A stretch of 64,000 nucleotides of DNA, taken from assembly GCA_034437375.1 (NCBI GenBank), contig DAOTUK010000064.1, positions 604 through 64,603 on the forward strand. The letters are read 5' to 3'. The notes beneath the pieces are model-generated. The model worked only from the letters and a program-made list of their open reading frames with translations. It was not told where the DNA came from and did no database searches. This document shows, one piece after another, positions 7,418 through 47,500 of this stretch (position 1 is its first letter; each line of letters begins with the position of its first letter). A program made the position numbers and the translations under genes. The DNA is from Chloroflexaceae bacterium. Lineage in GTDB: Bacteria > Chloroflexota > Chloroflexia > Chloroflexales > Chloroflexaceae.

Positions 7418-8095
7418 CTACTTCCGGGTACAACAGAGCGCCAGCAGATAGTGCGCCATCGGATAAAAGCCGGTGTGGACGACCTCATCGTTCATTGAGA
7501 AGACAAACACGTTATGGAAATGCTGCTGCATCACGGCTTTGAACTCGTTTCCATCCTTGCAATTGACGTGCCCCGCCTTGCTTGGGGGCGAGGCATACTC
7601 CTGCGATTGGAGCGAGGGCATACCAATAATCAGCGTGCCTTGCGCGTGCAGCGATTGCACCATGTTGCTGATGAAGCGGTGTTCCTCCTCACGGGGGATA
7701 TGTTCTAGCACATCCAGCGCATAGGCCCCATCGAAGTTGCCCGCAACCGGCCCGCTCATCATATCATGCACCTGGCAGGTAAACGACCAGCGCGCATCCA
7801 TGCGCTGCTGCACATCTTCTACAAACACGGGGTCAAAGTCTACCGCGGTCAGGTGGTGAACGTCTTGCAGCACAACCCGTGTGCCAAAGGCATCGGCGCA
7901 CCCCACCTCAAGCACGTGGTTCATACCGCTGAACATCTTGGCGACAAACTTGTACCGCGCCAGCAGGAAGGTCAGCCGCTTCGGGTCGTCGTACCAGACC
8001 TGGTTGCTCATAAGCCCAAGCGGGGTTAGCCCATACCGATCGCGTAGCTCAAGGCAAATCTGATATTGTGGTTCGCGGGTTTGATCATCCGTCAT
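7418..8095 (-). CDS. Class I SAM-dependent methyltransferase
   Basis: VLEVGCADAFGTRVV (SAM motif I), AVDFD, and YALDVLEHIP. ATGA overlap with the next gene at 8092-8095. Confidence 0.75.
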   Translation of the reverse strand: MTDDQTREPQYQICLELRDRYGLTPLGLMSNQVWYDDPKRLTFLLARYKFVAKMFSGMNHVLEVGCADAFGTRVVLQDVHHLTAVDFDPVFVEDVQQRMDARWSFTCQVHDMMSGPVAGNFDGAYALDVLEHIPREEEHRFISNMVQSLHAQGTLIIGMPSLQSQEYASPPSKAGHVNCKDGNEFKAVMQQHFHNVFVFSMNDEVVHTGFYPMAHYLLALCCTRK

Positions 8096-9372
8096 ACCAT
8101 AGTTCCTCTCGTATCATTGGAAGGTTCTGTTTCTTCAGCCGGCGGCTCTGATAATACCACCGTCGCTACCCTATTTAGCACTCCCTTTGCAACTACAAAC
8201 GGGTATCGCGGTATGTGATAGAGCGGGCGTTTGGCTAATACCGCGCGGGCGCCTATCTCGCCCACCAGTTGTCTGAGCGTCAGGCGGGCCAACACTCTGA
8301 GGGAGCGCCCCCCCTTGCGCAACGCTATGCCGGGGAGCCGGCCGGGATAGCGCAAGAGCGACTTGAACCGCTTGTACTTCAGGAATTCCAGCCGAAAGAG
8401 TATCTGCTCAACAATCCGATCTGATTCTGCTTCAACCGCTTCCCACTGGGGCGAGCAATCATCACAATGGAGGCGTACCTTGTGGCGGAAGAATTTGTGA
8501 TGATAGGGGAAGGAGTACAGGCAAAAATCGCTGTATTTGAATGGGCTAAACCGATTGGGGGCAATGTCGAAATCCTGGTACGAGACAGGGCTCATCTCAA
8601 CTCCCAGGATGTCATCGGAATCTTCAACCACATGCATCTTGTCATAGTCCGGGCACGCAACCATGAGGTAGTCATAGTCAATGGAGCCAAACGTGGTATG
8701 CAAATGGCACGGATAAATCAAGAGCGGGTGCATGTGCAAGGCTCGCACCAGGATTCCCTCCTGTTCCACCCGCCAGTAGATGTGCGAGGGTCGTTTATTG
8801 AAGGTTGGCGAATCGGTGTAATATGATTCGGAAACCGGGTGCAGGTATTCCATGGTTATACGCATAAGCTCGCGTGGGGGCAATACCAGCGCCCCCTCTG
8901 GTGTGAGCGGATGGAGCGCTTGCAGGGCGGGGATAAACGTTTCGCGCACAACCCGCAGGCCGGGGCTCAGCACCACTCGTTTGCCCATTTTTGCAAGATG
9001 TAGCACATGGGCCAGTGAGCCATCCGAGAAGAGACTATCGGGCGAAAGGAAGATGAGTGCGGCATCGGCATGGTACGCTGCCCGTATAGCCAGCGAATGA
9101 CAGAATAACAACCCCTCAAAAGCGATGGTATTGGTTGTCTCTTCGGGAATTTCGACGATTTTCACGGGCACCATGGCCTTGAGCCGCGCAAAAGACGGTA
9201 CGTCCTGTATTCGTTCGATGTCGCTCGGCTTGGTATAGATTTTGAACAGCACGTCGTCATCGGGGCCAAAGGCCCCCAGGTTGCCGGGCGACAGCAGGTT
9301 GGGCAGGGCAAAGTTGAGAAACAAATCGCTATATGTTTTGCCCCAGAAAGCTATAATCAGGTGGAATCTCAT
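8092..9372 (-). CDS. Unknown-family protein, paralogue A (GT-A-like motifs; possible glycosyltransferase)
   Basis: Clear paralogue of the 11680-13062 gene. Shared blocks are FHLI..WG..Y.DLFLN.ALP..LSPGNL, IFL(S/T)PDS, PSH(I/L)YW...EGIL.R..H.HPL.IYP and V(V/I)(E/Q)DSD. The start at 9372 (MRFHLI) forms an ATGA overlap with the wzt stop. Confidence 0.6.
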   Translation of the reverse strand: MRFHLIIAFWGKTYSDLFLNFALPNLLSPGNLGAFGPDDDVLFKIYTKPSDIERIQDVPSFARLKAMVPVKIVEIPEETTNTIAFEGLLFCHSLAIRAAYHADAALIFLSPDSLFSDGSLAHVLHLAKMGKRVVLSPGLRVVRETFIPALQALHPLTPEGALVLPPRELMRITMEYLHPVSESYYTDSPTFNKRPSHIYWRVEQEGILVRALHMHPLLIYPCHLHTTFGSIDYDYLMVACPDYDKMHVVEDSDDILGVEMSPVSYQDFDIAPNRFSPFKYSDFCLYSFPYHHKFFRHKVRLHCDDCSPQWEAVEAESDRIVEQILFRLEFLKYKRFKSLLRYPGRLPGIALRKGGRSLRVLARLTLRQLVGEIGARAVLAKRPLYHIPRYPFVVAKGVLNRVATVVLSEPPAEETEPSNDTRGTMV

Positions 9373-10700
9373 ATAGTTGCCTCTGGTAATGGGTCTATAA
9401 ACTGTGTTTGCCACGCAAGATGTGGGCGGATAATCCCAAACTCGCCGCCGAAATACTCCTGGCTAATCTGCCCACTATCGTGAACATGAAACGAGACGGC
9501 ATAGTCTTGAAAGACTTGCACGTCTGCTTTTCCCCTGGCCAGAATAACAGACACACTATAGGTGCCGGTATTTAAAAAGTTCGCTGGAATACAACATACG
9601 GTTTCAAACATCCCAGGATTATGCGGTTTTCCTCCAAACGCATCTTCTGTTTTAGACACAGATTTGAGATTGGAGGACACAAACGCAATACTCCCCAGTT
9701 CATCTCGGAGCCAGATAGAGACGTACAGATGGGTACCTTCCTGCAAATTCCAGTAGGTAATGGAAACGTGTATATCTTCTGATATAGTCACCTCGGTAGA
9801 CGGGCCGCTTCTGCCGGTTTGGAGAATGCGCACAGCATGGAGACGGGCTATATCATCGCCTGGCGCATGCGCCATATCGGGCCAGACCATCTCGCCCCCG
9901 GCGGTCCGCACCATGCCGAGGTACTGCTGCACAACGGATGCCGTCTTGCCAATCGCCGCGACCTGGCCATTATTGAGCAACAGGGCCCGCTGGCACAGGT
10001 TGGTGATATTGCCCATACTATGCGAAACGAGGAGGACGGTTCGCCCCCCCTTACTCACTTCGGCCATCTTGCCCATACATTTTTTCTGAAACTCAATATC
10101 GCCAACGGCCAGGACTTCATCCACGATTAAAATATCTGGTTCCAGATGGGCGGCCACTGCAAACGCCAACCGTACATACATCCCGCTTGAATAGCGCTTG
10201 ACGGGTGTGTCAATAAACTTTTTGACCCCGGAGAATGCGACAATCTCATCAAATTTGCGGTCAATCTCCGCGCGGCTCATGCCAATGATGGCCCCATTCA
10301 TATAGATGTTTTCTCGCCCCGTCAAGTCCGGGTGAAAGCCGGTGCCAACCTCTATCATACTGCCAAGGCGCCCCTCGATAACTGCGCGACCGCTGGTTGG
10401 CTTGATGATACGCGCAAGAACTTTCAGGAGCGTAGATTTGCCGGCCCCGTTGCGGCCAATAATCCCGATAACCTCCCCTTGCTTTACTTCAAAGGAAACA
10501 TCGTTCAAAGCCCAGATAAGGTCATCGCTGGTCTGTCCATTCTGTTCTAGCCGCGCGGTATAGCGGAGATCTCGAAAATTCTTGAGCGGTTTCAGCATGA
10601 AATTTGCGATAACCCCAAGCGGGGTACGCGAAAATTCCTCCTTCAACCCGATGCGGTAGCATTTGGACATATTTTCAACACGAATAACAACGTCACTCAT
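9369..10700 (-). CDS. wzt: Polysaccharide-export ABC transporter ATP-binding protein with C-terminal extension (Wzt-type)
   Basis: Walker A GRNGAGKST, signature YSSGM, Walker B LIVDEVLAVGD, and H-loop VSHS. About 180 extra C-terminal residues (nt ~9372-9908) are beta-rich, as in Wzt C-terminal glycan-cap-binding domains. Confidence 0.9.
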   Translation of the reverse strand: MSDVVIRVENMSKCYRIGLKEEFSRTPLGVIANFMLKPLKNFRDLRYTARLEQNGQTSDDLIWALNDVSFEVKQGEVIGIIGRNGAGKSTLLKVLARIIKPTSGRAVIEGRLGSMIEVGTGFHPDLTGRENIYMNGAIIGMSRAEIDRKFDEIVAFSGVKKFIDTPVKRYSSGMYVRLAFAVAAHLEPDILIVDEVLAVGDIEFQKKCMGKMAEVSKGGRTVLLVSHSMGNITNLCQRALLLNNGQVAAIGKTASVVQQYLGMVRTAGGEMVWPDMAHAPGDDIARLHAVRILQTGRSGPSTEVTISEDIHVSITYWNLQEGTHLYVSIWLRDELGSIAFVSSNLKSVSKTEDAFGGKPHNPGMFETVCCIPANFLNTGTYSVSVILARGKADVQVFQDYAVSFHVHDSGQISQEYFGGEFGIIRPHLAWQTQFIDPLPEATI

Positions 10701-10703
10701 ACG

Positions 10704-11576
10704 TTACGATACATCCACAATAATACTTTCAAGCCGCTGAAAGACCAGAAACCCACTGACAAGCAGAATAATGGTGGTGATAGCTCCGATACCAATAAAA
10801 TCCCATGGCATCGGGTTGGTAGATAGAATGGCCGCGCGAAACCCTTCGATGATACCGACCATAGGATTGAGCGCATATATCGTGAGATACCGCTCAGGAA
10901 TAAGGGATGCGGGGTAGAAAACGGGCGAAACGTACATCAGCGCCATGGTAATAATGTTCAAGAGATAGCCTATGTCCCGATATTGCACCGAGGTGACGGC
11001 AACCCACATACCCAGGCCCAACGCTGCGCCCATAGCCATCAATATTAGCAATGGCAAGTAGATAATCAATGCATTTGGAACGATACGATACCAGACCATC
11101 ATCACAACGAGCAAGATCATTGCAATAAAAAAGTCTACCAATTTGCTCAGTAGAACAGATAGGGGCAAAATAATCCTTGGAAAGTATACTTTGCTAATGA
11201 GTCCCATTCCCGCGGCGAGACTATTGCTAACGCCACCAAGCGCCGAAGAAAAGAATGTCCAGGCGGTCAGGGCGGTATAGACAAAGATGGTAAAGGGTGT
11301 GCCTTCAGACCCGATGCGCAGCAGCATGCTAAAGACGATGGTGAAGATGATCATGGTTGCCAGGGGCCGCAGGATAGACCAGGCCGGCCCAAGAATAGTC
11401 TGGGTATACTGGGTTTTGAGATCACGCACGACCATCAGGTAGAGCAATGTGCGATAGTTCCATAGTTCGCCAAGGTTTGCTATCGTCCAGTGCGATGTGG
11501 GTTCAATAATTATTCGTGGTTTGGGAGATTCGTTCTCCCCGGACGGGTGTTCAATTGTAGGAGCGTTTGTTTTCAA
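10704..11576 (-). CDS. wzm: ABC-2 type polysaccharide-export permease (Wzm-type)
   Basis: LWNYRTLLYLMVVRDLKTQYTQTILGPAWSILRPL N-terminal signature. About 6 hydrophobic spans. It sits immediately upstream of wzt. Confidence 0.85.
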   Translation of the reverse strand: MKTNAPTIEHPSGENESPKPRIIIEPTSHWTIANLGELWNYRTLLYLMVVRDLKTQYTQTILGPAWSILRPLATMIIFTIVFSMLLRIGSEGTPFTIFVYTALTAWTFFSSALGGVSNSLAAGMGLISKVYFPRIILPLSVLLSKLVDFFIAMILLVVMMVWYRIVPNALIIYLPLLILMAMGAALGLGMWVAVTSVQYRDIGYLLNIITMALMYVSPVFYPASLIPERYLTIYALNPMVGIIEGFRAAILSTNPMPWDFIGIGAITTIILLVSGFLVFQRLESIIVDVS

Positions 11577-11679: not shown

Positions 11680-13062
11680 TTAGACAAGGGAATTAGAATC
11701 ATGATTGAATTGGATAACAATGTCGTTCATACATTCAGCCCCGCTTGTTTTTCTCGTACGGTTTGTGTTAAACTGCCGCAGCATAAACTGCCGCAGCATA
11801 AACCGCATATGAACGGGATACCGCCCTACAAAGTACCCCAGTCTTAGCAAAAGATGTCCACCCGTGATAAACCTTTGTCCCAAGTATATTAGCATATTAG
11901 CAGGTGTGAAGGGCGTGGCACTAAGATTATTGATAACATTTGTTAATAGATTATAGTTATCATTGATAATACCAAATTTATCAACAAAATCAATATCATC
12001 ATCTGGATTAAAATACGCAAGCCATTTATATTTGTATTGGATAAATAACCACAAATCAGAAAAACTACGTATTCGGTTGTTAGTTAGACGATCTATCTTG
12101 TTTATTACTTTATTTGAAGCTCTGATGGCATTTTTCCAATTGCCCGACTTTTTGCCGATATGAAGAGCAATATGGTGATTTGCGTAATAATGGTGTTGTT
12201 TGTTTGTATGATAATAGGCCCAGGCTATAACTCGTGCTAAATCAAAGTTGCTTATATCGCCAATATGTCGAGATTTATCCGTAATATCTACGCCGAAAGC
12301 CTCATCAGAGTCCTGAATAACATAGATACTCTCTATATTGGGACATGCTAACGCAATATAGTCATCGTCTATGGTAGACTTCGGTGATACATCTGTGCGT
12401 TGTGGGTATATCATCAACGGGTGGAGATGAAAGCATCGTGCGAGGATACCTTCCCCCTTAACAGGCCAGTACAAATGTGATGGCCAGGTACTCAAGTAAT
12501 CTGTTCCTAAAAAACACGCTTTGCTGTGTAGGTGGAGATGCTCCAATCCCAATTTCACCAACGAACCCGATGAGACTGAGATAGTTCTATCTTCTTGGGA
12601 AAAATATTTTTCTATCAAGGCCGGTACAAATGTTTCATGGGTCACTCGAATACCCGCAATCAAAACTACTCGGTAACCTTGCTCAGCGAGCTGTACAATG
12701 GTTGCAAAGGTTCCGTTAGACCAGACTGAATCGGGGGTCAGGAAAATTAACGTAGCTCCCTCTTTATTTGCTGCTTCAATAGCACGGATTTGATAGTTTG
12801 TCATCGTTTGTAAACGATCGAACGTTTCATCCTCTATAATGATTATTTCGGTAGTAATAATATCAGATACGCTATGAAACACTTCAGACGCTTGTATCTT
12901 TCTTGCGTCGTCGGCTGTCGTGTATATTTTATACACAGACCCTCGGCGGTTTTGGAAAACTGGTAGATTACCTGGTGATAGCTGGCAAGGAAGTGCAATA
13001 TTCAGAAAGAGATCAGTGTAAGCAGTTCCCCAGACAACTGTTATCAAATGGAATTGTATCAT
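11680..13062 (-). CDS. Unknown-family protein, paralogue B (GT-A-like motifs), strongly AT-rich gene
   Basis: Paralogue of the 8092-9372 gene, with the shared blocks listed there. I chose the start at MIQFHLI (13062) by homology with paralogue A. The track ORF extends to 13092. Bases 11941-12000 contain only 12 G+C of 60. Confidence 0.6.
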   Translation of the reverse strand: MIQFHLITVVWGTAYTDLFLNIALPCQLSPGNLPVFQNRRGSVYKIYTTADDARKIQASEVFHSVSDIITTEIIIIEDETFDRLQTMTNYQIRAIEAANKEGATLIFLTPDSVWSNGTFATIVQLAEQGYRVVLIAGIRVTHETFVPALIEKYFSQEDRTISVSSGSLVKLGLEHLHLHSKACFLGTDYLSTWPSHLYWPVKGEGILARCFHLHPLMIYPQRTDVSPKSTIDDDYIALACPNIESIYVIQDSDEAFGVDITDKSRHIGDISNFDLARVIAWAYYHTNKQHHYYANHHIALHIGKKSGNWKNAIRASNKVINKIDRLTNNRIRSFSDLWLFIQYKYKWLAYFNPDDDIDFVDKFGIINDNYNLLTNVINNLSATPFTPANMLIYLGQRFITGGHLLLRLGYFVGRYPVHMRFMLRQFMLRQFNTNRTRKTSGAECMNDIVIQFNHDSNSLV

Positions 13063-13424
13063 CAAGCAGGCTTCTTTCGCTATCCCATGCAAGATTTTAC
13101 AAAAAAGAGCATGTAACGTCTACGGTGGTGAGCGGTAGCGCACAAAGGCTTCAGTCGCTTGCGTGGATTTAAATTATTCTGTACAACGGTAAATACACTT
13201 TCAGACACCAACTTGCTCTTGGGGAGCATGTCTGAGAACCTCCATCCTGTTGCCAGGTCAACTAGTTTTGTCTATTCCTTCACCACATATCCCGCCGGAA
13301 CATTTGTCCAGGGGAGCGTCTTGGCGGCGTTGAAGCGCACCATAGGCGGGTAGCATGAGCATCGGGTCAAGCCGGGTTTCAAGGGTATTGTGCCAATATT
13401 GCCCCGTATACCCTTGCGATGTTT

Positions 13425-15141: not shown

Positions 15142-16512
15142 TTATGGCTGTTCTGGCGGCTGATGGTCATGCACAAAGAAAGCCTGTCCGTGCCACCCAT
15201 AGGGAAGGAAGGGCGAATAGGAGAAGCGTTCCTGTGCGCCAAACACCTCCGCGAAGGCGCGACGCTCACCCATAGCCGGGTTGGCGCGGTTGCAGTTGTA
15301 ATCATCAAACAGCAGCACACATCCATCTTGCAGCAAGTCTTGCTTGAGCAATTGCTCAAGCACGGTAACGGTTGAGGTATACATATCGCAGTCAACGTGG
15401 ATCAGCGCGGCTTTGCCGGCCGGCAGCGCGGTCGCCAGCGTCTCCTCAAAGAAACCTTTGGTAATGTGTATCTGTTCGGGGGGTACTATCTTCGAGAGTA
15501 CGCGGAAAATCCTGTCGGGCATTTCCTCTTCAAGCGCCATAGAACCCTGGAACCACACCTTGTTGATGCGAACTTCGTAGCTTGCCTGGTCAACAGGCGA
15601 GGTGATCTCTGGCAAGCCTTCAAAGGAGTCATACAGGTAGAGCGCGCCGGGATAGCGGAATTGCTGCATCAGCGTGGCCATCAGGCGGGCGGTATATCCG
15701 CGCAGGGTACCAAATTCCAGGATGTGGCCCTGTATACCGGTGCCGGTGATGTACTCGATACAGCGGCGAAATGCTTCACCATACACAACGTCGGCACGCG
15801 GCCGAGTATACCCCAGGGGGGGCAATAGGGTGGGATCTATCTGTTCTAGCATAGTGGGGGGTAGCCGTTCCAGCGTCGCGGGGGGTAGCTGTTCCAGCGT
15901 CGCGGGGGAGAGGCGTTCCAACGCCGTCGGGGGTAGCCGTTCCAACGCCGTCGGGGGTAGCTGTTCCAGGATTGTGGGGGGAAGCTGTTCCAGCGTCGCG
16001 GGCGAAAGTTGTTCCAATGTTTCGGGGGGCAATTGCGCAAGCACATCGGGGGCGAGATGCACGAGAATATCCGGGTGCAGGCGCACAATAATCTCCGGGA
16101 GCAATTGTTCTACCACGGCGGGGGTCAGGCGGGTCAGTACGTCGGGCGAAAGTTGTTCCAACGTTTCGAGGGAGAGCCGTTCCAGCACCGTGGGCGAAAG
16201 CTGTTCCAGCGTCGCGGGGGGTAGCTGTTCCAACACGGCGGGGGAGAGCCGTTCCAATGCCGTGGGCGAGAGCTGTTCCAACACGGCGGGCTCCAATTGT
16301 TCGAGCACGGATGGATTGAACCGTTCCAACACCACTGGAACAAGACATGCGACGATGTCCGGGGGCAATTGTTCGAGCAAGGCCGGGTCAAGGTGTCTGG
16401 TTACCTGGGGATCGAGAAAAGCCAGCAGAGGGGGCCCCAGACGGTGCCAGGCCGTTATCGCCTGGTGTCGAACCATGCGGCGAAGTACGCTGGCTGTTTG
16501 TTGTTGCTTCAT
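15142..16512 (-). CDS. Octapeptide-repeat stalk fused to TylF-type O-methyltransferase domain
   Basis: The C-terminal ~220 aa carry ILEFGTLRGYT, DSFEGLP, KGFFEETL, VDCDMYTST and FDDY (TylF / macrocin-O-methyltransferase family pattern). Residues ~25-232 are 26 tandem 8-residue units. Confidence 0.8.
   Translation of the reverse strand: MKQQQTASVLRRMVRHQAITAWHRLGPPLLAFLDPQVTRHLDPALLEQLPPDIVACLVPVVLERFNPSVLEQLEPAVLEQLSPTALERLSPAVLEQLPPATLEQLSPTVLERLSLETLEQLSPDVLTRLTPAVVEQLLPEIIVRLHPDILVHLAPDVLAQLPPETLEQLSPATLEQLPPTILEQLPPTALERLPPTALERLSPATLEQLPPATLERLPPTMLEQIDPTLLPPLGYTRPRADVVYGEAFRRCIEYITGTGIQGHILEFGTLRGYTARLMATLMQQFRYPGALYLYDSFEGLPEITSPVDQASYEVRINKVWFQGSMALEEEMPDRIFRVLSKIVPPEQIHITKGFFEETLATALPAGKAALIHVDCDMYTSTVTVLEQLLKQDLLQDGCVLLFDDYNCNRANPAMGERRAFAEVFGAQERFSYSPFLPYGWHGQAFFVHDHQPPEQP
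15817..16440 (-). repeat. Coding tandem repeat: 26 x 24 nt (consensus L-S/P-P-x-T/V-L-E-Q/R)
   Basis: The repeat reads LGPPLLAF LDPQVTRH LDPALLEQ LPPDIVAC LVPVVLER FNPSVLEQ LEPAVLEQ LSPTALER LSPAVLEQ LPPATLEQ LSPTVLER LSLETLEQ LSPDVLTR LTPAVVEQ LLPEIIVR LHPDILVH LAPDVLAQ LPPETLEQ LSPATLEQ LPPTILEQ LPPTALER LPPTALER LSPATLEQ LPPATLER LPPTMLEQ IDPTLLPP. The DNA shows matching near-identical 24-nt units (ctgttccagcgtcgcggggggtag...). Confidence 0.9.
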
Positions 16513-16540
16513 ATAGTCGTGTCCTCGTTTCCTGCGTATA

Positions 16541-17593
16541 TCAAACGATGCGCTGTAAGGCTACACGGGCTTTTTGCAACTGCTGCGCTTTGCGTGCTTC
16601 CTGATCGGTGGCCGTGTCGGCAAAGCGGCGGCGGGCGCTGCCGGCGGGCAAAAAATCGTTCAGCATAATGCAGCACCACTTCACCTGGTAGACCGGCAAC
16701 AGCCGACGGAACCGCGCACGATGGGCGGGCGGGTCGGTGGTATATTCGGCGGCTACCTCGGTTACCTGGTCAACGTAGGCCATGGGCACGGGCACGGCTG
16801 GCTGGCAAAAGAAATCGCCTACCAGTTTAGCCGGGTCGTCCCATCCGGCATATTCAAAATCAAGAAAACGTAATTGCTGGTCGCTGTCGGACAGGATGGC
16901 GTTGTGAAAGCCAAAATCGGAGGGCGACAGACAGCGATCCGTGGGGGATACCTCGGTATCGAGCGCCAGGCCTGGCGAGGGTACCTCGCTGGCTACCGCG
17001 GCATGCACCGTTTGCCATACCGCCTGTAAGTCGTGCTGGATGAAGCGCACAGCGTCGCGGTTGATAGGCTGTGTATCGTCAATGCGTTCAAGCCGTTGCA
17101 AGCGTCGTTCGACCGTGGCCAGGTGGTCGGCAATCGTAAAGCACGCCTCGGAGGCCGGCGGCAGTTGGTGGGCCTGGGGGTGGTGGCGGTGCTGGTTGAG
17201 GGCGCGATAGAACGCGAGGGCTTGCGATACGGCGGCGTCGCCTACCTCGGCGGGTTCGAGCCGCCGCCCCGCGACAAACTTGTACAATCCAAGCGCGTGG
17301 TCGCAGTCGTAGGCCAGCGGTTGGGGGATGCAGCGTATACCACGTTCCCAGGCAAAGCTGGCAAAGGCAAACTCGGTGCCCAGGCGGTCGCGGGGGTCGT
17401 CCGGGTGTTGGAAGTAGGCTTTGAGCAGGGCCGTACCGCTGTCGCTCTCTACCCGAAAGACGCGATTGTTCGCCCCCCCGCTCAGCGGAACGAGCGCCAC
17501 CGGGCCCCGAAAACCGGCCTGGTGCATCATGCGGGACGCCGCCTCGGTTATCGGCTCGTCAGCTATTGTGATTGTCGGGTCATCTGTCATCAT
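16541..17593 (-). CDS. APH/choline-kinase-fold phosphotransferase (small-molecule or sugar kinase)
   Basis: NNRVFRVE...ALLKAY (N-lobe), catalytic-loop-like SPSDFGFHN, and metal-binding DFEYAGWDDP. ATGA overlap with the upstream HAD gene at 17590-17593. Confidence 0.7.
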   Translation of the reverse strand: MMTDDPTITIADEPITEAASRMMHQAGFRGPVALVPLSGGANNRVFRVESDSGTALLKAYFQHPDDPRDRLGTEFAFASFAWERGIRCIPQPLAYDCDHALGLYKFVAGRRLEPAEVGDAAVSQALAFYRALNQHRHHPQAHQLPPASEACFTIADHLATVERRLQRLERIDDTQPINRDAVRFIQHDLQAVWQTVHAAVASEVPSPGLALDTEVSPTDRCLSPSDFGFHNAILSDSDQQLRFLDFEYAGWDDPAKLVGDFFCQPAVPVPMAYVDQVTEVAAEYTTDPPAHRARFRRLLPVYQVKWCCIMLNDFLPAGSARRRFADTATDQEARKAQQLQKARVALQRIV

Positions 17594-18192
17594 AGCAAGT
17601 ACGCAGCAAGCTCTGTCCAGGCCGTAAAGCGCCGGAACCCGTGTTCGTCGCCGGTGTTCTGGTTGGGGTCAAAGAGTAAGCGCTCTACGGTAGGCGGAAA
17701 GGCCGCTTCGGCCAGAAATTCGGGCAAGTCATCAATAAAATGGGTACACCCCACGCTGGCGATACGCTGGATTTTCTCCTGTTTGGTTAATTCAAAAAAT
17801 ACCTGTTCGGACGACAAACCAATGTGGGCCGGGTCGAAAAACCCGTAGTGTTCGAGCCACCCGCGGGCGGACTGGTGCAGGTCGAAAGCGGGGCCCCGAA
17901 AGGGATGGCGTGTCTTGTGGCTGATAATGCACACGGCAACCCCCTGCTGCTGGCAGCGCAGAAAGAAATCTATCACACCGGGGAAGGGGGCCGCCTCCTG
18001 CATACGCGGGCCATAGACATAGCCTTGCATTGCAGTCCAGGTGTCTTCCTGTCCACACTGGCGCAGATAGTCGCGCACGGCCCCTTTGCTTGCGGGTAGC
18101 TCCGGCGGAATGTGGTTTTGCTCCAGCGCAACCTGGTGAAACAGGGTATCGTAGCAAACGATCGTATTGTCAAAGTCAACGCCAATATGCAT
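17590..18192 (-). CDS. HAD-superfamily hydrolase (phosphatase fold)
   Basis: The N-terminal MHIGVDFDNTIV contains the DxDxT nucleophile motif. CIISHKT matches motif II, and FIDDLPEF is a motif IV-like acidic site. Confidence 0.7.
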   Translation of the reverse strand: MHIGVDFDNTIVCYDTLFHQVALEQNHIPPELPASKGAVRDYLRQCGQEDTWTAMQGYVYGPRMQEAAPFPGVIDFFLRCQQQGVAVCIISHKTRHPFRGPAFDLHQSARGWLEHYGFFDPAHIGLSSEQVFFELTKQEKIQRIASVGCTHFIDDLPEFLAEAAFPPTVERLLFDPNQNTGDEHGFRRFTAWTELAAYLL

Positions 18193-18205: not shown

Positions 18206-19246
18206 CTATTCCAGGGTCATATCAATGATGGGGCGGGCTACCTTGCCGGCTTCCAGATCATCGAGGGCGGCGTTAATCTCGCTCAGGCGGTAGGTCTGGG
18301 GCATCAATACGTCAAAGTTGAATTTGCCAGCCTCCATCAACGTACAGTAGCGCGGGTAGTCGCGGTCGGGCACACTATCGCCGCCCCACGTGCCAAGCAG
18401 TTGCTTACCCTGGTTAAACTGTTGCGGGTTCAGCTCCACCTGTTCGCCATGGTGGGCGTTGCCAATGATAACCGCGGCCCCGCCCTGGCTCCGCACGCTC
18501 AAGAGGGCCTGGGTCATTACCTGGGGGCGGCCGCTGGCTTCAATGGCGCGGTCTACCCCGCCCGGACACATACGCTTGATAGCCTCAACCGGGTCTTCCT
18601 CTCCCGCGTTGATAGTATGGGTTGCCCCCATCTGGCGGGCCAGGTCAAGTTTGGCGGGCAATATATCTACGGCGATAATCGGGATACAGCCGGAGACTGC
18701 GGCGGCCGCAATGGCACACAGCCCTACCCCGCCGCTCCCAAAAATAGCTATGCTCTGGCCGGGGCGGGCCTGGGCGGTATTGAACACGGCCCCAACCCCC
18801 GTTGGCACCGCGCACCCAAGCAGGGCCGCCTGGCGCATGGGGAAGGCTTCTGGGAGCGGGGTCAACCGGTTCTCGCTGATTACGGCATAGCGGCTAAAGG
18901 TGGTAATTCCTCCGGCGTTGACGGTCGTTCCATTCCACTGGTAGGTAGTGCCCGGCACATTCATACCGCTGCCCTTAATCCACGAGAGGATGACCCGATC
19001 ACCCGGTTTGACCTTTGTCACGCCCGGCCCAATATCGTACACCGTGCCGCTACCCTCGTGGCCCAGACAGTGGGGCAGGAAGGGATCGTTGCCGCGGTGG
19101 CCCCGCGCTTCCAGCACCTGCGTATGGCACACGCCACTATAGGCAATGTCAACCACTACCTGGCCAGGCTTCAGGGTCGGCATCTCTAGCTCATCCAGTA
19201 CGAGCGGTTTGCCCAATTCAACCAGTATTGCTGCGGTTGTCTTCAT
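18206..19246 (-). CDS. Zinc-dependent alcohol dehydrogenase (MDR family)
   Basis: GVCHTQV...GHEGSGTV (catalytic Zn ligands), GDRVILSW, and the GSGGVGLCAI Rossmann motif. I chose the start at MKTTAAIL (19246), preceded by GGAGG. The track ORF extends to 19318. Confidence 0.85.
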   Translation of the reverse strand: MKTTAAILVELGKPLVLDELEMPTLKPGQVVVDIAYSGVCHTQVLEARGHRGNDPFLPHCLGHEGSGTVYDIGPGVTKVKPGDRVILSWIKGSGMNVPGTTYQWNGTTVNAGGITTFSRYAVISENRLTPLPEAFPMRQAALLGCAVPTGVGAVFNTAQARPGQSIAIFGSGGVGLCAIAAAAVSGCIPIIAVDILPAKLDLARQMGATHTINAGEEDPVEAIKRMCPGGVDRAIEASGRPQVMTQALLSVRSQGGAAVIIGNAHHGEQVELNPQQFNQGKQLLGTWGGDSVPDRDYPRYCTLMEAGKFNFDVLMPQTYRLSEINAALDDLEAGKVARPIIDMTLE

Positions 19247-19271
19247 CAGAGCGCCTCCATAAGAACAATTA

Positions 19272-20204
19272 TTAAAGGAAGTGTTGAAATATCCGCGAAA
19301 CGGTGTCGGTAATATCACGGGCGGTCAACCCCGTTTGTTCGCGGGCATAGGCTTGCTCGCCGGCTTCGTGTATGAAGCTGTCCGGGGTGCCTATGCGACA
19401 CAGGTAGGTATCATCGGGGTAGGGATGATCAGATAACCATTCAGCGACGCTACCACCAAGCCCGCCCAGAATGGAATGCTCTTCAATCGTCGCTACCATG
19501 CGATACCGCTTAAATATATCCATGAGGAACCTATCATCCAACGGCTTGACGGTATGCATACTCACCACCTCGACGGAAATATTCCTTTGCGTCAGTTCTG
19601 CGGCCGCTTCCATCGCCACGGGCAACATCGTGCCGGTGCTGAGCAAACAGCCATCGGTGCCGGTCTGCATCACGATACCCTGGCCAATTTTGAAATCGGG
19701 CGGCTGTTGATGTACCACCGGCTCGCCCTTTTTGCCCAGACGCAGGTAGACCGGGCCGTTGTGGGCTATGGCGGCTCGCAAGGCCAACCGCACTTCCACC
19801 GCATCAGCGGGACACACTACCGTCATATTCGGTAAAATACGCATCATAGCAATATCTTCGCAGGCATGGTGGGTTGCGCCAAGCGAGGCGTAGGAGAGCC
19901 CGGCCCCGACGCCGACAATAACAACCGGGACGTTGTGGTAGCAGACATCTATGCGTATCTGCTCGTAGCAGCGGGTGGTGATAAAGGGGGTGATGGTATA
20001 GGCCACCGGGCGCAAGCCCGACAGGGCCATCCCCGCGGCTACCCCTAGCATGTTCGCTTCAGCGACGCCACAGTTAAAGAAGCGTTCTCCAAACGCCGCT
20101 TTGTAGGAGTCGAAGAGCCGATTACCTATATCGCCAGAGAGCATGACAATCCGGGGGTCTTCGGCGGCCAGGGCGTTTATTTCGGCAGCAAATGCGTTTC
20201 TCAT
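19272..20204 (-). CDS. Transketolase, C-terminal (pyrimidine-binding) subunit
   Basis: FFNCGVAEANMLGVAAGMALSGLRPVAYTITPF and GATHHACEDIAMMRILPNM. 4-nt overlap with the N-terminal subunit gene. Confidence 0.85.
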   Translation of the reverse strand: MRNAFAAEINALAAEDPRIVMLSGDIGNRLFDSYKAAFGERFFNCGVAEANMLGVAAGMALSGLRPVAYTITPFITTRCYEQIRIDVCYHNVPVVIVGVGAGLSYASLGATHHACEDIAMMRILPNMTVVCPADAVEVRLALRAAIAHNGPVYLRLGKKGEPVVHQQPPDFKIGQGIVMQTGTDGCLLSTGTMLPVAMEAAAELTQRNISVEVVSMHTVKPLDDRFLMDIFKRYRMVATIEEHSILGGLGGSVAEWLSDHPYPDDTYLCRIGTPDSFIHEAGEQAYAREQTGLTARDITDTVSRIFQHFL

Positions 20205-21043
20205 ACTAACCCAAGCTCCATTCTGGCTTGCGCTACTTCTTCGGCGGTTGGAATACGATAGTGCCAGTTGTTATCATCTTCCATAAACGAGATGCCTTTA
20301 CCTTTGACCGTGTTGGCGATAACGACCACCGGTTTTCCGCCGCTATCGGGAACCGTACGCAAGACCTGCACCAGAGCGGCCATATCGTGCCCATCTACCT
20401 CGTGGGTGTTCCACCCAAAGGCTTCCCACTTCTGGCGCAGGGGCGAGAGCGCCAGCACTTCATTGCTGCGCCCGGTGGCTTGCCATTTGTTGTAGTCTAC
20501 AAAGGCCATCACAGTATCTACCTGGTGCGCGGCGGTCATCATAGCCGCCTCCCAGACCGACCCTTCGTTACATTCGCCATCGCTCATCACCACAAACACG
20601 CGGTAGGCTTGCTGCTGGATGCGTGCGGCCAGGGCCATCCCCAGGCCCAACGGTAGCCCGTGCCCCAGTGAGCCGGTAGAGGCCTCGATACCCGGCGCAC
20701 AGCCCAGGCTCGGATGTTCGGCCAACGCGGTGCCATCCTGGTTGAAGGTGTCGAGCAGGTCGGGCGAGAAGAAGCCGCGATAGGCCAGCGTTGCGTATAG
20801 GGCGGTTGCGGCATGCCCCTTGCTGAGAATACAGCGGTCGCGCTCCGGGGCGTCTGGTTGGGCCGGGTCAATACGGAGCGCCGACCAGTACAGCGCAACC
20901 AGTATATCTACACAAGACAATGCCGAACCGAGATGGGGGGTACCGGCGGCATGGGACATCTCAACCAGTTTGCCCCGAATTGTCCGGGCGATAGCGTCCA
21001 GTTCGTCCATATCAATGGGCTCATTGGAGGAGTGGTTGTGCAT
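20201..21043 (-). CDS. Transketolase, N-terminal (ThDP pyrophosphate-binding) subunit
   Basis: GTPHLGSALSCVDILVALYW, SKGHAATALYATLA, GSLGHGLPLGLGMALAA, and the ThDP motif VVMSDGECNEGSVWEA. Confidence 0.85.
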   Translation of the reverse strand: MHNHSSNEPIDMDELDAIARTIRGKLVEMSHAAGTPHLGSALSCVDILVALYWSALRIDPAQPDAPERDRCILSKGHAATALYATLAYRGFFSPDLLDTFNQDGTALAEHPSLGCAPGIEASTGSLGHGLPLGLGMALAARIQQQAYRVFVVMSDGECNEGSVWEAAMMTAAHQVDTVMAFVDYNKWQATGRSNEVLALSPLRQKWEAFGWNTHEVDGHDMAALVQVLRTVPDSGGKPVVVIANTVKGKGISFMEDDNNWHYRIPTAEEVAQARMELGLV

Positions 21044-41587: not shown

Positions 41588-44500
41588 CTACGGACGGAGC
41601 ACCAGTGCATTTGCCTGGGTATTGTCCCAGGTTGCGGTGGTACTCATAGCCTGGCCGTCAACCGTAAAGGACACGGTATCGCCCGGCACGCCACACCCGG
41701 CCGCAACCACCGTCACGGCATACACCACGTTGCCATTGACCTTGCGTGTCTGTCCCTCGCCACAGACGTTCCCTTGCATGGAGGCCTGGACGGTTTGGCC
41801 GGCCGCGGGGACAAACCCGTTCCCTGCCTGTATGTCTCCGTAGTAGATGGCCGGTACGATGGCCAGGTCGCTGCTGGCCAGACGGTCGTACTCCTCCGTT
41901 GCGCCCTTCAGGTACAATGTTACATCCTGCGTGACATACACCCAGTAGCCCTGGCCAAACGTGGCCGCGGCCAGCGTATTGACCCAGGATGGCGTCGCGC
42001 TGTGGTAGCCCTGCCAGGCCTGCCATAGGCTGTCGGGCGTCGCCGTTTGCTGGTTATAGTGCCACACGCTTGTATAGTACCCTTCGATAGATTGCAGCGT
42101 CTCGCTCATCGTCCGGCTCCCGCGCACTGGGTAGGCGATATTGTTCCAGCCGGGCCCCTTCAGCGGAACCTGCACACTGGACATGAGCGCGTAGCGCCCG
42201 GTCCCCTGCGCTGGTGCAGAGGCGGTATTTTGCTCGGTGTTCAGGTTGGTGGGCAGCGGCCGCCAGCAGGGAGCCTCCCACACGCCGCACTGTTCGGGGT
42301 CGCGCTCCTGGAAGTAAACGGAAATCCACTCCTCTTCGCCCGGTACCACATCGCTGGTCATATAGCTAATGCTGAGCGAGGCATTGCCCTCCAGTTGCGG
42401 TGCGCGGGCCGTCGCCGTCAGGCGATAGCCTTGCCCCACCACGGTGGCCCAGGCGGGCGGCTCAATCGAGCTGACCGACTGGATGGCGTAGAATTCGCCT
42501 TCGTTGAAGGTAAGGTTGCTCCCAAACAGCATGGCTTGCCCGTCGGAGGAGAGCACTGGCGCGTTGCGTTTGCGGTGGCTGCCGGGGTTGCCGCGGGGGG
42601 CGTTGCGCTTGCGGTGGCTACCCGGCGTCCCGAAGGGGGCGTTGCGCTTGCGGTGGCTGCCGGGGTTGCCGCCTGGCGTGTTGCGCTTGCGGTGGCTGCC
42701 GGGGTTGCCGCCAATGGCATAGTCGCTCATCACCGCGCGCCGCGGCTCCGGTTCGTCAACCCACACATGTACCAGGCCCTCGAACGCCGGTTCGTCAAGC
42801 CTGATTTGCCCGCTATACCCCGCGCCATTGGCGGTCAACGAAATAACCGGCTGTGCAGTATCGTTCACCGGGTAGAGTTGGGCTTTTAAGGATAGACCGG
42901 GCGGTACCTGCTCAACCATCACCGAGATGGTTTCCGCATCTATGGGTGTGACCACAACGTCCGGTCTCCACGAACTATCGAGCATTGCCATGGTGATATA
43001 CTGGTCGTTGCTGCGCACAGTTTCACACCCCCGGCGTTGCTCGGCCAGGGTAAACACGCAGAGTCGGTCGCCCGGCCGGGCCCCGCGCCCCTCAACGCGG
43101 TCAAGAATCGTGGTGCCCAGGTCTATTAAGTAGTCGCCCTCTTGCTGGAACAGGAAAACCCGCGCATTCTTCTCTGGTTGGTAGGGGCGGCCCTGCTCAT
43201 CCACCATATAGAAAATGGGCACGTCAAGGACTTCGACCGGTGTTTCGGGCTCAACTACGGTAAAGGTCGTGAGATCGAGCGGCAGATAGCCGGGGCCGGG
43301 GTTGGCATCAAAAGCCGAGGGCATATGCATATTCGGGTAAAACGCGGTAATCGTTTCCCAGTCGGAGCGCCCGGTGCCCTGGTTCGATAGCGTTTGCGCA
43401 CAGCCCGGCAACCAGTCGGTGGGCGGTTGAAATTCGCTGGTATTGTCCAGGTAGGGGTCGCTCATTGCGCCGGGGCATGTTGTCACCGGTATCAAGCGCC
43501 CCGCATCATCCAACCCGATATAGTTGTCGTCCAGGAAGAGGGCATAATGCCCAAGCTCGTGGGCCAGCGTTCGCGGCCAATCTTCGCCCATCGTCCCATT
43601 GGCCTCGCCGTAGCGATTCCATACCGCGCCAATACGCACCTGGCCCGGCTCGTAGACAAAGGGGCGGGTGGGGTCGCCAACGGCCTCGGTGATGATGCCG
43701 CCCTGGTTGGCGTTGGGGCGCAGGCGGTTGGTTGCGTAGATGCGGATATGGGCGTAGTTCCAGTTTTCGCGGTCGTGGTAGATGGTAATATTTCCAAGCG
43801 CGACCTGCCCATTTGTCCAATCGTAGAGGATTTCGGAGACACGCCGCAGGTCATACTTCAGCCGCGCAAGGAATTGCTCGTCGGCGCGGGCGTCCCATTC
43901 CAGCGATACATCCAGATTAAACAGCGTGAGTTGGTGGCTTTCCGATACCTCCAATATCTGGTTGCCCTGCTGGTTGACGGTATCGGCTACCAGTCCGGTG
44001 GTAATGGGGGTTGCGTTGGTCAGGTAGATAACGGCTCCGTCGGTTTCTTGATAGGGTAACAGCGCGACCAGCGTATCGCCAAGCGCCACCTGGCTATTGC
44101 CTTGCAAGTAGCCGTGCTGATTGGTGCGTAGTGGCTCGCCGGCGTTATTGGCCAGCACAGATGCATACTGCTCGCCCTGGGGAATATGCTGCACGTGCGC
44201 TATATCAACCGGTGTGCCGTTGTGCGTTACCTGTATCTGGTTGCTAATCATGCGGAGCGGAAAACTGGTGGTGGCATAGGCGCTGTACTGGTAGGGCCCC
44301 GCCGCGCTATTTGGCGTGGGGGCCAGCGCGGGCACAGCCACCAGCCGGAACATGACATCATCCGATTGCCCAAAGAAGCCGCTGGCCCACGTGTCCCACT
44401 GGTAGGTATACGTTCCGTCCTTGCTGCGGGGGGGGGGCGCACTGGGCACATGGATGGTCGGCAGGAAGAGTGCTGTATCGCCCGCCTGTTGCGCACGGGG

Positions 44501-47500
44501 CGGGTGTTCCGGGGCGGTGTCTGTGGTGGTGGGGACGCCGGCTGCTTCCAGCGCCTCTAGTCGCGCCGAGCCCGCACCCGCCTGGGTCAAGGCGGGTAGC
44601 CACGTGCCCCCGCCATTCAGCGAGTAGAATCCCTGGACGCGCTCAATCGGTATATTCCCGGTTTCGAAGAGCCGGAACTGAATGGGCACAACCACCGGTG
44701 CCTGCCAGCGCTCCGATGCATACCCATAGGCCGCATCGGTCGGGCCCACATGCGTTATCACGACCGCCGGGGGGGCGGCCTTGTTCTTGCGGTTGTCGCG
44801 GGTATTGAAATAGAGGTGGTTATAGTCATTGCTCTTGCCGGAGGCCAGGTCAAGGTCGCCATCGCCATCCACATCGCCCCACGCTACCGCACGCGAGCAG
44901 GTGGTTTCATCCGAAGACCAGTCGGCGTACTCCGTCAAGCTCCCGCCATTGTTGCGGTACATACGATCTGAATGGTCACAATTGGCTACCACCAGATCCA
45001 GGTCGCCATCGCCATCCGCATCGCCCCACGCAAGATCGGTCGTCCGTTCGGCTTCAAGCGATGACCAGATGGCATAGTCCGTCAAGGTTCCATGATCATT
45101 GCGATAGAGTTGGATGGGTTGATCCCAGTTGGCCGCGGCCATGTCAAGGTCGCCGTCGCCATCGTAGTCGCCCCACGCGACATTGTGGGCCCAAAACTCT
45201 TCGAGCGATGACCACACTGCTTTTGTCTCTAGTTCCCCATCATTGTTGCGGTACAGCCGATTGGGTTGCTTGTTATTGGCTACGGCCAGGTCAAGGTCGC
45301 CATCGCCATCGTAGTCGCCCCACGCCAACCCCCAACTATCGCTGCTATCTTGCGTTTCCCACACTGCCGCACTTGTCAATGTGCCGTCATCGTTGCGATA
45401 CAGGCGGTTGGGTTGGTTACTATTGGCCACGGCCAGGTCGAGGTCGCCATCGCCATCATAGTCGCCCCAGGCAATCTTGTGCGTCGAATCGGCTTCGTCC
45501 GACGACCACACGGCCTGTGTGGTGAGCATCCCATCATCGTTGCGATACAGGCGGTTGGGTTCGCCATAATTGCCGACGGCCAGGTCGAGGTCGCCATCGC
45601 CATCCACATCGCCCCAGGCTATGTCGCGGGTCAGATCGGACTCTTCCGACCACCAGTCCGGAAAGCGGGCGAGTGTTCCCCCTTCGTTATAGTACACGTC
45701 GTTGGACTCAGCATAATTGCCCGTGGCCAGGTCGAGGTCGCCATCGCCATCCACATCGCCCCAGGCCACACTGGACGTATTCGTCTCTTCGTCCGATGCC
45801 CAGTCAAGGGTGGTATTGAGCGCATCGGTGTTAAACCGATGCACGCGCACGGGTTGATCGCGGTTGCCCGTGGCCAGGTCGAGGTCACCATCGCCATCCA
45901 TATCGCCAAGCGCTACGCTCCAGGTATACTCATCTTCCGTTGATACCCAACTATCGTCATTATCAAGAATCTTCCCTTTGTTGAAGTAGACCCGGTTGCG
46001 CTGGTCGCTGTTGCCGACTACCAGATCGAGCTTCCCATCGCCATTCACATCGCCCCAGGCTACGCTCCAGGTATATTCATGGGCGTAGGATGACCAGATG
46101 GCTACATCAGAAAACAGTCCATCATCGTTGCGATAGATTTGCACCGGTTGGTTGGCATTCCCGACGGCCAGGTCGAGGTCGCCATCGCCATCCATATCAC
46201 CAAGCGCTACACTATCGCTATCGGCATAGTCAAAGCTAGACCACACGGCCGCGCTCGTGAGGGTGCCTCCCTCGTTGCGATACAGGCGGTTTGGCCGGTT
46301 ATAATTGCCGGCCACCAGGTCGAGGTCACCATCATTATCTACATCGCCCAACGCCACACTGGTGGTCTGATCTTTCTCCTCCGATGCCCACACCGGTTTC
46401 TGGGATAACGTGCCCCCCTCGTTGCGGTACAAAAGGTTTGGGGTGCCTATGGTGCCAACTACCAGATCCAGGTCACCATCCCCATCTATATCGCCCCACG
46501 CAACGCTCCACGTATTCCCAGGCTTGTGCGAAGACCAGGCGGCCTCCGCTTGCAGCATCCCACCGTCATTCAGGTACAACCGGTTCGGTTCTTTTGCATT
46601 TCCGACGGCCAGGTCAAGGTCACCATCATTATCTACGTCGCCCCACGCCAGACTTTGCGAGGTGTCCTGTTCCGACGAAGACCACGCCGCGGTGGTCGAA
46701 AGCACCCCGCTCTCGTTGATATAGACGCGGTTTGATTGGTTGATTGTCAGCGAGGAATCAATATAGCCATAGTTGGCCACGGCCAGGTCGAGGTCGCCAT
46801 CATTATCTACGTCGCCCCAGGCCAGCGAGCGGGTATCATCTGACTCGACCGATGACCACACCGTAGCCGGCTGTTCCCGTTCTGGTGGCGCGTCGGTATC
46901 GTCCTCGTTGACGAGCAGTTGCACATCGTCTACATAAAAGGTTGCGTGGGGGGCCATATTATCCTGGTATACCAAGAAGTTGACCGATAGTTGCTGCCCG
47001 CGTATGTGCTCAATCGCATCAGAATCAACTTCGAGTATGGCGCGGTGCCAGCCGGGTTCGTTACTTGCTAGAAACAGGTTATCGCTATACCATGTTTCAA
47101 AGTCCGTATCGGTTATATTGACCTGCAACACATCAGCGTGCAGCGTTTCATCCTCCGTTGCGGTCTGGGCTAGACGAGCCAACGGCCCCGTTGGTACCAG
47201 CGCTTGCGTCGTGCTGCCTTCGGTATCCTGGGTATCGGTGGTTCCCCTGGCCTTGTCCGTTGTCCGGACGGTATCCGGGTTCTCATTCTTCCAGTAAAAA
47301 TGCAGCGTGAGCGAATCGGTTGCTTCGGGAACATCCACAACCTGGTACAGGTAGGTATTAACCCCCGGCGCTGTGGTGGCCGAACGCTTGCCGCTATGGG
47401 CCTTGTCCGAGGTGTACGAGACGTGTTCGTCCATGTCCCAGGCTTCGTCCTGTTCAAACCCGCCATTGACCAGGATATTGTCGGTCTGGAGGTGTGGCCG

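Follow-up and report, generated by a model that had tools for sequence, protein, structure and literature searches.

A natural octad repeat on a TylF-type methyltransferase in a Chloroflexaceae glycan locus: a probable helical-screw rod and candidate spacer

Introduction

A stretch of 64,000 nucleotides from a Chloroflexaceae bacterium (assembly GCA_034437375.1, contig DAOTUK010000064.1, positions 604 to 64,603; this whole stretch is called the window here), whose source sample was a microbial mat, carries within a long minus-strand glycan locus a gene for an S-adenosylmethionine (SAM)-dependent O-methyltransferase, and between the N-terminal helix and the catalytic domain of the encoded protein lies an array of tandem eight-residue units (octads). 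The array is maintained by selection, probably folds into a thin rod built of one short helix per unit, and its position suggests a spacer or ruler on an enzyme that would cap a surface glycan. Here, we describe the array and its gene, relate it to other period-8 repeats, and weigh the proposed role against alternative explanations.

The octad array and the gene that carries it

The methyltransferase gene, whose ATG is preceded at a distance of 9 nt by the Shine-Dalgarno-like sequence GAGGA, is composed of the following elements:

15142..16512, minus strand: whole methyltransferase gene, from the 456-residue open reading frame (ORF) and its translation; basic N-terminal helix, 26 octads and TylF-type O-methyltransferase domain
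16441..16512, minus strand: residues 1-24, a basic, moderately amphipathic N-terminal helix and candidate anchor or docking element (AlphaFold2, hydrophobic moment, homologues)
15817..16440, minus strand: octad array of 26 units (24 nt each, residues 25-232), consensus L-[PS]-P-x-[VTI]-L-E-[QR]
15817..15840, minus strand: last unit, IDPTLLPP, which coincides with the DPTLxPPPGY lead-in to the methyltransferase domain and is a possible seed of the array (the motif occurs in most repeat-less homologues)
15145..15816, minus strand: residues 233-456, TylF/NovP-type SAM-dependent O-methyltransferase domain (Pfam, NovP alignment, Foldseek)

An earlier, sequence-only reading of this DNA had described 26 in-register octads over residues ~25-232, with LPPTALER and LSPATLEQ occurring twice each, and the unit table, the shuffled controls and Tandem Repeats Finder (TRF) all confirm it. 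The register is unbroken from residue 25 to residue 232; position 1 is Leu in 24 of the 26 units, position 3 is Pro in 25, and position 6 is Leu, Val or Ile, again in 25. Glu occupies position 7 in 18 units, Gln or Arg position 8 in 21, and position 2 is most often Ser, Asp, Asn or Thr (12 units) or Pro (eight units); positions 2-5 read [PS]-P-x-[VTI], with no Gln at position 5. The first two octads (LGPPLLAF and LDPQVTRH) and the last (IDPTLLPP) are degenerate. Self-identity of the array at lag 8 is 0.52, compared with 0.124 +/- 0.022 and a maximum of 0.205 in 2000 shuffles, and at the DNA level TRF and a separate repeat finder both return a 24-nt period. A higher-order period of 16 or 24 residues was considered and rejected, as the lag identities are 0.52 (lag 8), 0.505 (lag 16) and 0.516 (lag 24) and the identity between units declines smoothly with lag. 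No further copies of the octad repeat were found in the same genome.

The units had also been called near-identical in DNA, which holds for the C-terminal ~8 units (79% matches by TRF, with one adjacent pair 1 nt apart) and not for the array as a whole, in which the mean pairwise identity of all units is 55%. Broken down by codon position, unit identity is lowest at third positions (0.41, versus 0.59 at first and 0.66 at second positions). Because third codon positions are the least conserved and unit identity is 55%, most of the array must be old and its amino-acid pattern under selection; the octad array is thus real and is kept by selection on that pattern, and the same octad architecture and synteny in a lineage that is 52-56% identical (proteins P0003 and P0004) support this conclusion. 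The contrary idea, that the array is a recent and functionally neutral expansion of DNA tolerated at the N-terminus of an enzyme, draws on the very similar DNA of the C-terminal units, on a gene family that works without the array and on the accessory nature of the gene described below. We consider it highly improbable: units that have diverged to 55% in DNA and 41% at third positions have nonetheless kept L-x-P-x-x-L, and the array stands at the same place, in the same synteny, in the 52-56% identical lineage.

Long ORFs also run across the array in other frames or on the opposite strand (15674-16516 on the plus strand; 15776-16348, 15846-16088 and 16134-16391 on the minus strand). They arise because the 24-nt unit is free of stop codons, and they should not be annotated as genes.

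Period-8 repeats and the predicted fold of the array

The period was initially thought to match no known class of protein repeat, a view that has to be abandoned: period-8 repeats are widespread, one such family is catalogued in Pfam (PF20080, ALTTAQ_rpt), and a helical-screw fold with this period was described in 2025. When the array alone was compared by phmmer with 1.84 billion representative proteins (E<=1e-3), 492 protein clusters matched. Of the 148 best array matches, 143 have 8, 16 or 24 as their strongest internal period, and typical units are LPPELLAR, LSPATLSK, LGPELLEE and ALPPEAM-TAMRPTQV. Judged by these matches, octad repeats are far commoner among natural sequences than would be supposed from the one natural helical screw cited from the PDB.

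The settings of the matching period-8 arrays are diverse (P0071, P0082, P0093, P0103 and P0219 are examples) and include a eukaryote-like protein of 1251 residues with LPPELLAR units, an eCIS-core/deaminase toxin in which LGPELLEE octads join domains, and membrane-anchored actinobacterial-type proteins with units such as LSPATLSK and LPVSVLAK. A word-indexed search with the repeat alone returned one additional protein, P0219, of the membrane-anchored actinobacterial type and with LPxSxLxx octads. Weak Pfam matches of the repeat to Phage_TAC_7, CAAP1, MgtE_N and HHH lie below the cut-offs and recur on unrelated octad proteins, and were set aside as artefacts of composition and periodicity; an NCBIfam scan of the 456-residue protein matched no family.

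ALTTAQ_rpt is present in 16 of the 73 shorter matches scanned. It is found at E=4.1e-35 in P0072, a protein of 1804 residues with Big_5 domains, to whose array the octad array aligns at E=9.3e-51. Both repeat types consist of tandem units of period 8 (the P0072 array reads as a 16-residue alternation) that begin with Leu and have an aliphatic sixth residue. They differ in that the octad array is rich in Pro, has acidic and amide residues at positions 7 and 8, and lacks the T-T-x-Q core of the ALTTAQ unit. Moreover, the ALTTAQ-positive proteins among these matches are often long, whereas the octad array forms a short stalk on an enzyme that depends on SAM and is presumably cytoplasmic.

A structural precedent is provided by designed 8-mer "alpha-helical screws", in which short helices wind tightly round an apolar core with 2.5-4 units per turn, following rules that place Pro at N1 and Ser, Thr, Asp or Asn as N-caps (bioRxiv 10.64898/2025.12.04.691947). 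The designs were soluble and, with one exception, behaved as apparent monomers on elution; a single natural example, 7QLR, was found in the PDB, and the authors asked why nature seldom uses the fold (bioRxiv 10.64898/2025.12.04.691947). By phmmer, the octad array aligns in register with one of the designs, HeliScrew4 (9zem_A, PDB 9ZEM; E=1.3e-11), over 112 residues, array residues 49-160 of 208 (protein residues 73-184) pairing with chain residues 6-117. Both have period 8, Leu at position 1, Ser or Thr at position 2, Pro at position 3, an aliphatic residue at position 6 and one short capped helix per unit, which in the octad array is a prediction. The hallmarks of the screws also recur in the array as Pro at N1 (Pro3), preceded by Ser, Thr, Asp or Asn in 12 of the 26 units, and as apolar core positions. 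HeliScrew4 is a designed, free-standing protein of 15 units, whereas the octad array occurs naturally, as 26-30 units joined to an enzyme.

AlphaFold2 places one helix of 4-6 residues on P3..L6 of every unit, with a predicted local distance difference test (pLDDT) score of 70-86 over residues ~70-140 and 160-225, in a model run on a small alignment. The array could instead be an intrinsically disordered and flexible tether, rich in Pro and lacking periodic structure, as might be supposed from the 37 prolines in the first 240 residues, a pLDDT that stays at 50-70 in roughly one unit in three and nowhere reaches 90, and the lack of a convincing three-dimensional match. A disordered tether would, however, hardly hold Leu1, Pro3 and Leu6 near-invariant while synonymous sites diverged, nor align in register with a helical protein of this period that is monomeric and has been crystallised, and a helix is predicted in each of its units; we regard disorder as very unlikely.

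Several results weigh against a straightforward assignment to the helical-screw or ALTTAQ type. ALTTAQ_rpt gives no match to the octad methyltransferase even at E<=1 (hmmscan, seven families listed), and the residues at positions 5, 7 and 8 differ from those of both relatives; in HeliScrew4 they are Gln or Lys, Ala and Ala, as opposed to Val/Thr/Ile, Glu and Gln/Arg in the array, so that the packing may differ. Foldseek searches of the PDB with both models returned neither 9ZEM nor 7QLR among the top 50, and the best natural matches were to mesothelin (probability 0.9-0.98, TM-score 0.23-0.29), which also matches the array weakly in sequence (E=0.06). Mesothelin/stereocilin-type repeats are likewise superhelices of short helices, but longer and irregular ones, and no homology is claimed. 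On account of the missing ALTTAQ_rpt match, the differences at positions 5, 7 and 8 and the failure of Foldseek to retrieve 9ZEM or 7QLR, the fold is taken as likely and the array is treated as a variant by sequence. The octad array thus probably folds into a thin rod of the period-8 helical-screw type, and appears from its sequence relationships to be a new variant within a repeat type that is already catalogued and of which a structure was recently solved. The earlier suggestion of a stack of short helices that would suit a spacer or ruler agrees with the predicted helix per octad, with the 9ZEM match and with the position of the array.

Variation in the number of units

A second assembly of the gene, in a microbial-mat contig from ENA (L002), has 30 units compared with the 26 of the window, and apart from the additional units the two differ by one single-nucleotide polymorphism in 1371 positions. 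Its insertions are in frame and measure 72 nt (three units, a perfect tandem duplication) and 24 nt (one unit), and they map to the following sites of the window:

16025..16099, minus strand: 75-nt core tandemly duplicated in the 30-unit form (72-nt step, three units; alignment A1, Logan unitig depth)
15865..15912, minus strand: site of one extra unit, LPPATLEQ, in the 30-unit form (alignment A1; a short one-mismatch unitig in run X2 is consistent with it)

Logan contigs of runs X1-X3 hold 87-99% of the words of the gene, and the duplication junction 16025->16096 is present in these runs. In run X1, the junction unitig has a depth of 13.2 and the adjoining unique unitig one of 13.8, and the 75-nt core reaches 28, approximately twice as much. 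No 31-mer is particular to the 26-unit form, which has no diagnostic word of its own. Together, these data suggest that the duplicated, 30-unit form is favoured or dominant in the best-matching sample, and the count of 26 in the window may be too low owing to assembly collapse. A collapse of the tandem duplication during assembly, with ~30 units in the sampled population, is in our judgement slightly the likelier account of the difference, given the junction, the doubled depth of the core and two assemblies otherwise one base apart. The depths are nevertheless noisy, inner unitigs lying at 8.9-13.8 and the flanks at 20.6-21.6, and mixed alleles could be present; the best-matching sample may not be the source of the window's assembly; and a real change in unit number is documented in the lineage of P0003 and P0004. 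Runs X4-X8 contain, at low depth, a relative of ~94-99% similarity whose contigs are interrupted within the repeat.

In that other lineage, P0003 (14 units) contains a 72-nt duplication of three units that P0004 (11 units) lacks. As the two copies in P0003 have diverged to ~92% identity, they are not an assembly artefact and constitute the more secure evidence that whole units are gained or lost. The in-frame gain and loss of units proposed by the sequence-only reading is upheld for the difference between 11 and 14 units, whereas that between 26 and 30 may be an artefact of assembly.

The methyltransferase domain and its homologues

The C-terminal domain scores well above the Pfam cut-off for TylF (E=1.8e-20, 73.8 bits versus a cut-off of 23) and also matches Methyltransf_24 (E=2.5e-10). 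NovP (2wk1) matches it at E=1.4e-12, with the motifs DSFxG (DSFEG), DxDxYxST (DCDMYTST) and DDY aligned, and Foldseek matches include MycF, CalS11 and MeT1. The closest known relatives of the domain are thus the sugar O-methyltransferases TylF, NovP, MycF, CalS11 and MeT1. In contrast to the 456-residue protein, the solved TylF-type members returned by the searches have 250-283 residues, and no octad array is seen in them.

In total, 70 homologues of the methyltransferase were recovered. Most close homologues are 250-320 residues long and consist of an Arg/Lys-rich N-terminal helix that is followed directly by DPTLxPPPGY, and the octads sit exactly between these two elements, which are adjacent in the repeat-less proteins. 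Other homologues carry tetratricopeptide repeats (TPR) or Pro-free heptad-like segments at the position of the array. Octads occur at the same place in one other lineage only, that of P0003 and P0004, which also keeps an internal LDPTILER unit. Since the last unit of the array coincides with the DPTL motif and LDPTILER is found inside the array of the other lineage, sequence comparison suggests that the array arose when the stretch surrounding this motif was amplified in tandem. In the tree, the two octad lineages fall into a polytomy with repeat-less proteins, which favours neither one origin nor two.

Unit counts in orthologues, a check proposed at the outset, do differ in the distant lineage (11 and 14), and none of eight genomes of the same genus contained an orthologue. 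A further 52 genomes of the same family or order yielded two weak partial matches, one of them full of stop codons, and a search of genome contigs for homologues returned only an Acidobacteriota fusion protein and a distant Anaerolineae methyltransferase. The methyltransferase gene is accessory.

The glycan locus and neighbouring genes

The gene is surrounded by genes for Wzm and Wzt, heptose-pathway and other sugar-nucleotide enzymes, several methyltransferases, a split transketolase, an alcohol dehydrogenase (ADH) and a WecA-like initiating transferase. The neighbours that bear on the function of the methyltransferase are:

16541..17593, minus strand: APH-family kinase gene, directly upstream (Pfam APH, E=1.1e-11)
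17590..18192, minus strand: 200-residue HAD-like protein (weak Pfam HAD, E=8e-4), syntenic with the kinase-methyltransferase pair
9369..11576, minus strand: Wzt (ABC ATPase with C-terminal extension) and Wzm (ABC-2 permease), from Pfam ABC_tran and ABC2_membrane; marker of an ATP-binding cassette (ABC)-transporter-dependent glycan pathway
11680..13092, minus strand: 470-residue protein with no Pfam domain; in other genomes its ~330-residue domain occurs joined to the methyltransferase (P0014, N-terminal part: 37% identity, E=2e-66)
8092..9414, minus strand: 440-residue paralogue of the preceding protein (P0033, N-terminal domain: 23% identity, E=4e-27)

The order of HAD-like gene, kinase and methyltransferase is the same in L002 and in the distant locus L009, with a gene for 199-200 residues in the same slot. 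Fusions tie the methyltransferase to two of its neighbours. In P0020, a protein of 650 residues from an Acidobacteriota metagenome-assembled genome (L007, contig CAVQEJ010000003.1, match 8001-8780), a kinase is joined to a methyltransferase by a linker of ~100 residues, and its kinase part is 48% identical to the kinase of the window (E=6e-76). The arrangement of this single chain argues that kinase and methyltransferase act on the same substrate. In P0014 and P0033/39, an N-terminal domain of ~330 residues with no Pfam assignment is followed by a linker and the methyltransferase, and P0043, P0051 and P0054 resemble these proteins in the length of their N-terminal parts. The two paralogues of this domain in the window flank wzm/wzt, and P0014, at the one fusion locus examined (L012), likewise stands beside wzm/wzt, which makes the domain a candidate for an undescribed glycan-assembly domain, perhaps a glycosyltransferase or polymerase. 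A 468-residue neighbour in L011, considered as a further homologue of this domain, proved on testing to be unrelated.

Further features of the locus were noted alongside. Wzt (9369-10700, minus strand) has a C-terminal extension of ~180 residues with a weak Wzt_C match (E=7.3e-5, 23.2 bits versus a cut-off of 30.4), which may be a divergent cap-binding module. The split transketolase (N and C halves; 18206-21043, minus strand) accompanies the kinase-methyltransferase module in L002, L009 and L012, with a zinc ADH beside it in the window and in L002; this association hints at a conserved pathway for a branched or modified sugar. Elsewhere in the window, a 2018-residue FG-GAP/VCBS-like protein (41588-47644, minus strand) carries four tandem basic units of 11-12 residues (NPGSHRKRNAP) in its C-terminal third. 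RpoB of the source genome (contig C241, L013, protein P0220) is ~85% identical to that of Chloroflexus, Oscillochloris and Chloroploca, which places the genome in the Chloroflexales, and has 1337 residues versus ~1228 in the closest Chloroflexus and Oscillochloris; the extra ~110 residues lie outside the part compared.

A proposed spacer on a glycan-capping enzyme

The chain length of ABC-transporter-dependent O-polysaccharides is determined by a terminating enzyme that a coiled-coil ruler keeps at a constant distance, the model being WbdD of Escherichia coli O9a, a kinase and methyltransferase in one protein; when its coiled coil is extended the modal chain length rises, and when it is shortened the modal length falls (PMC5082667, PMC3482155). 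According to a 2024 study, every known terminator complex has a coiled-coil protein (PMC11231755). The locus described here resembles that of WbdD in bringing together a kinase and a methyltransferase with Wzm and Wzt, and the protein resembles WbdD-type rulers in that a long, repetitive and presumably rigid spacer separates a catalytic domain from a terminal helix, with heptad-like spacers present in homologues. The order is mirrored, the anchor being N-terminal and the enzyme C-terminal in the octad protein.

The position of the array, together with the spacers and fusions of the homologues (to a neighbouring kinase and to the no-Pfam domain found by wzm/wzt), leads us to suggest that the array acts as a spacer or ruler, and the analogy with WbdD suggests that the enzyme so served is a glycan-capping one. 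We propose the following mechanism. Each unit would form a capped single-turn helix, in which the residue at position 2 (Ser, Asp, Asn or Thr, or Pro) serves as N-cap and Pro3 is the first helix residue; Leu1 and Leu6, together with Val or Ile at position 5, would point into a continuous apolar core, so that the units wind into a thin, rigid and monomeric rod. If its diameter is taken as 18-20 Å, the volume occupied by 208 residues would give a rod of 26 units a length of ~90-110 Å, or ~3-4 Å per unit. It would separate the basic N-terminal helix, which could dock on the membrane or on a partner protein, from the methyltransferase, and the latter, probably with the kinase, would cap and thereby terminate the growing Wzm/Wzt-dependent surface glycan. 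The distance between docking point and active site would then be fixed by the rod, as it is by the coiled coil of WbdD-type terminators, and duplication or deletion of whole units in the 24-nt tandem array, in steps of one or three units, would alter its length in frame.

Taken as a whole, the proposal of a helical-screw rod that spaces the basic helix from a glycan-capping methyltransferase and is adjustable in length seems to us an even call; it reads a fold, a capping role and a ruler role out of the observed repeat, its selection and position, the fusions and the changes in unit number. Considerably more tentative is the stronger hypothesis that the octad screw is a new, monomeric ruler that is not a coiled coil, works in eight-residue steps and sets the length of a Chloroflexales surface glycan, with slippage or recombination in the array providing heritable in-frame tuning; this we consider possible and on the doubtful side.

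A number of observations tell against a WbdD-like ruler. There is no detectable sequence homology to WbdD: the kinase finds no relative in the PDB at E<=1, WbdD included, the PDB search with the methyltransferase domain returned NovP/MycF-type chains only and no WbdD, and the kinase is a separate protein here. Known rulers are oligomeric coiled coils and the HeliScrews are monomers; in residues 1-240, with their 37 prolines, a crude heptad scan found no Pro-free heptad window and hence no coiled coil. The putative anchor is a helix that AlphaFold2 places at residues 2-32 with a low pLDDT of ~46, and it is moderately amphipathic, its 11-residue hydrophobic moment peaking at 0.77. Many homologues have no spacer at all, including some in glycan loci (L011), so a ruler is not obligatory for the family. 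The distribution of the gene is patchy, with none in the eight same-genus genomes and next to none in the other 52. Finally, the kinase, the HAD-like protein, the transketolase and the ADH could instead build a sugar nucleotide.

The rod might also be a surface for protein-protein interaction, a scaffold that recruits, for example, the kinase, the proteins with the no-Pfam domain or Wzt; its length would then measure nothing and changes in unit number would be nearly neutral. Solenoid and armadillo (ARM)-like repeats often serve as platforms for binding, mesothelin-type superhelices are the nearest natural matches in structure, TPR, a classical interaction module, stands at the array position in other homologues, and the many homologues that function with no spacer fit a scaffold as well. 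However, the surface positions 4, 7 and 8 are monotonous (Ala/Thr, Glu and Gln/Arg), unlike a patterned binding face, and array length differs between lineages, 11-14 versus 26-30 units, while the flanking elements are conserved. We therefore view a scaffold as a possibility of lesser weight, improbable although well within consideration, and retain the spacer or ruler as the suggested role.

Concluding remarks

Should the rod prove to be only a linker, the finding would be of modest value as annotation, adding a new sequence variant to a repeat type that was already catalogued. The case adds a short and tractable natural array, probably of the helical-screw type, that is attached to a soluble enzyme domain of an ordinary kind. 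Most of its interest lies in the context, namely a candidate spacer or ruler other than a coiled coil, variable in length by whole units, on what architecture, fusions and analogy suggest to be a glycan-capping enzyme. With an octad ruler, length could be adjusted in far smaller steps than with a coiled coil, and always by whole, in-frame units. If the ruler is true, a methyltransferase family whose members have no spacer, TPR repeats, heptad-like segments or octads between the same two elements would constitute a natural experiment on how spacer geometry relates to polymer length.

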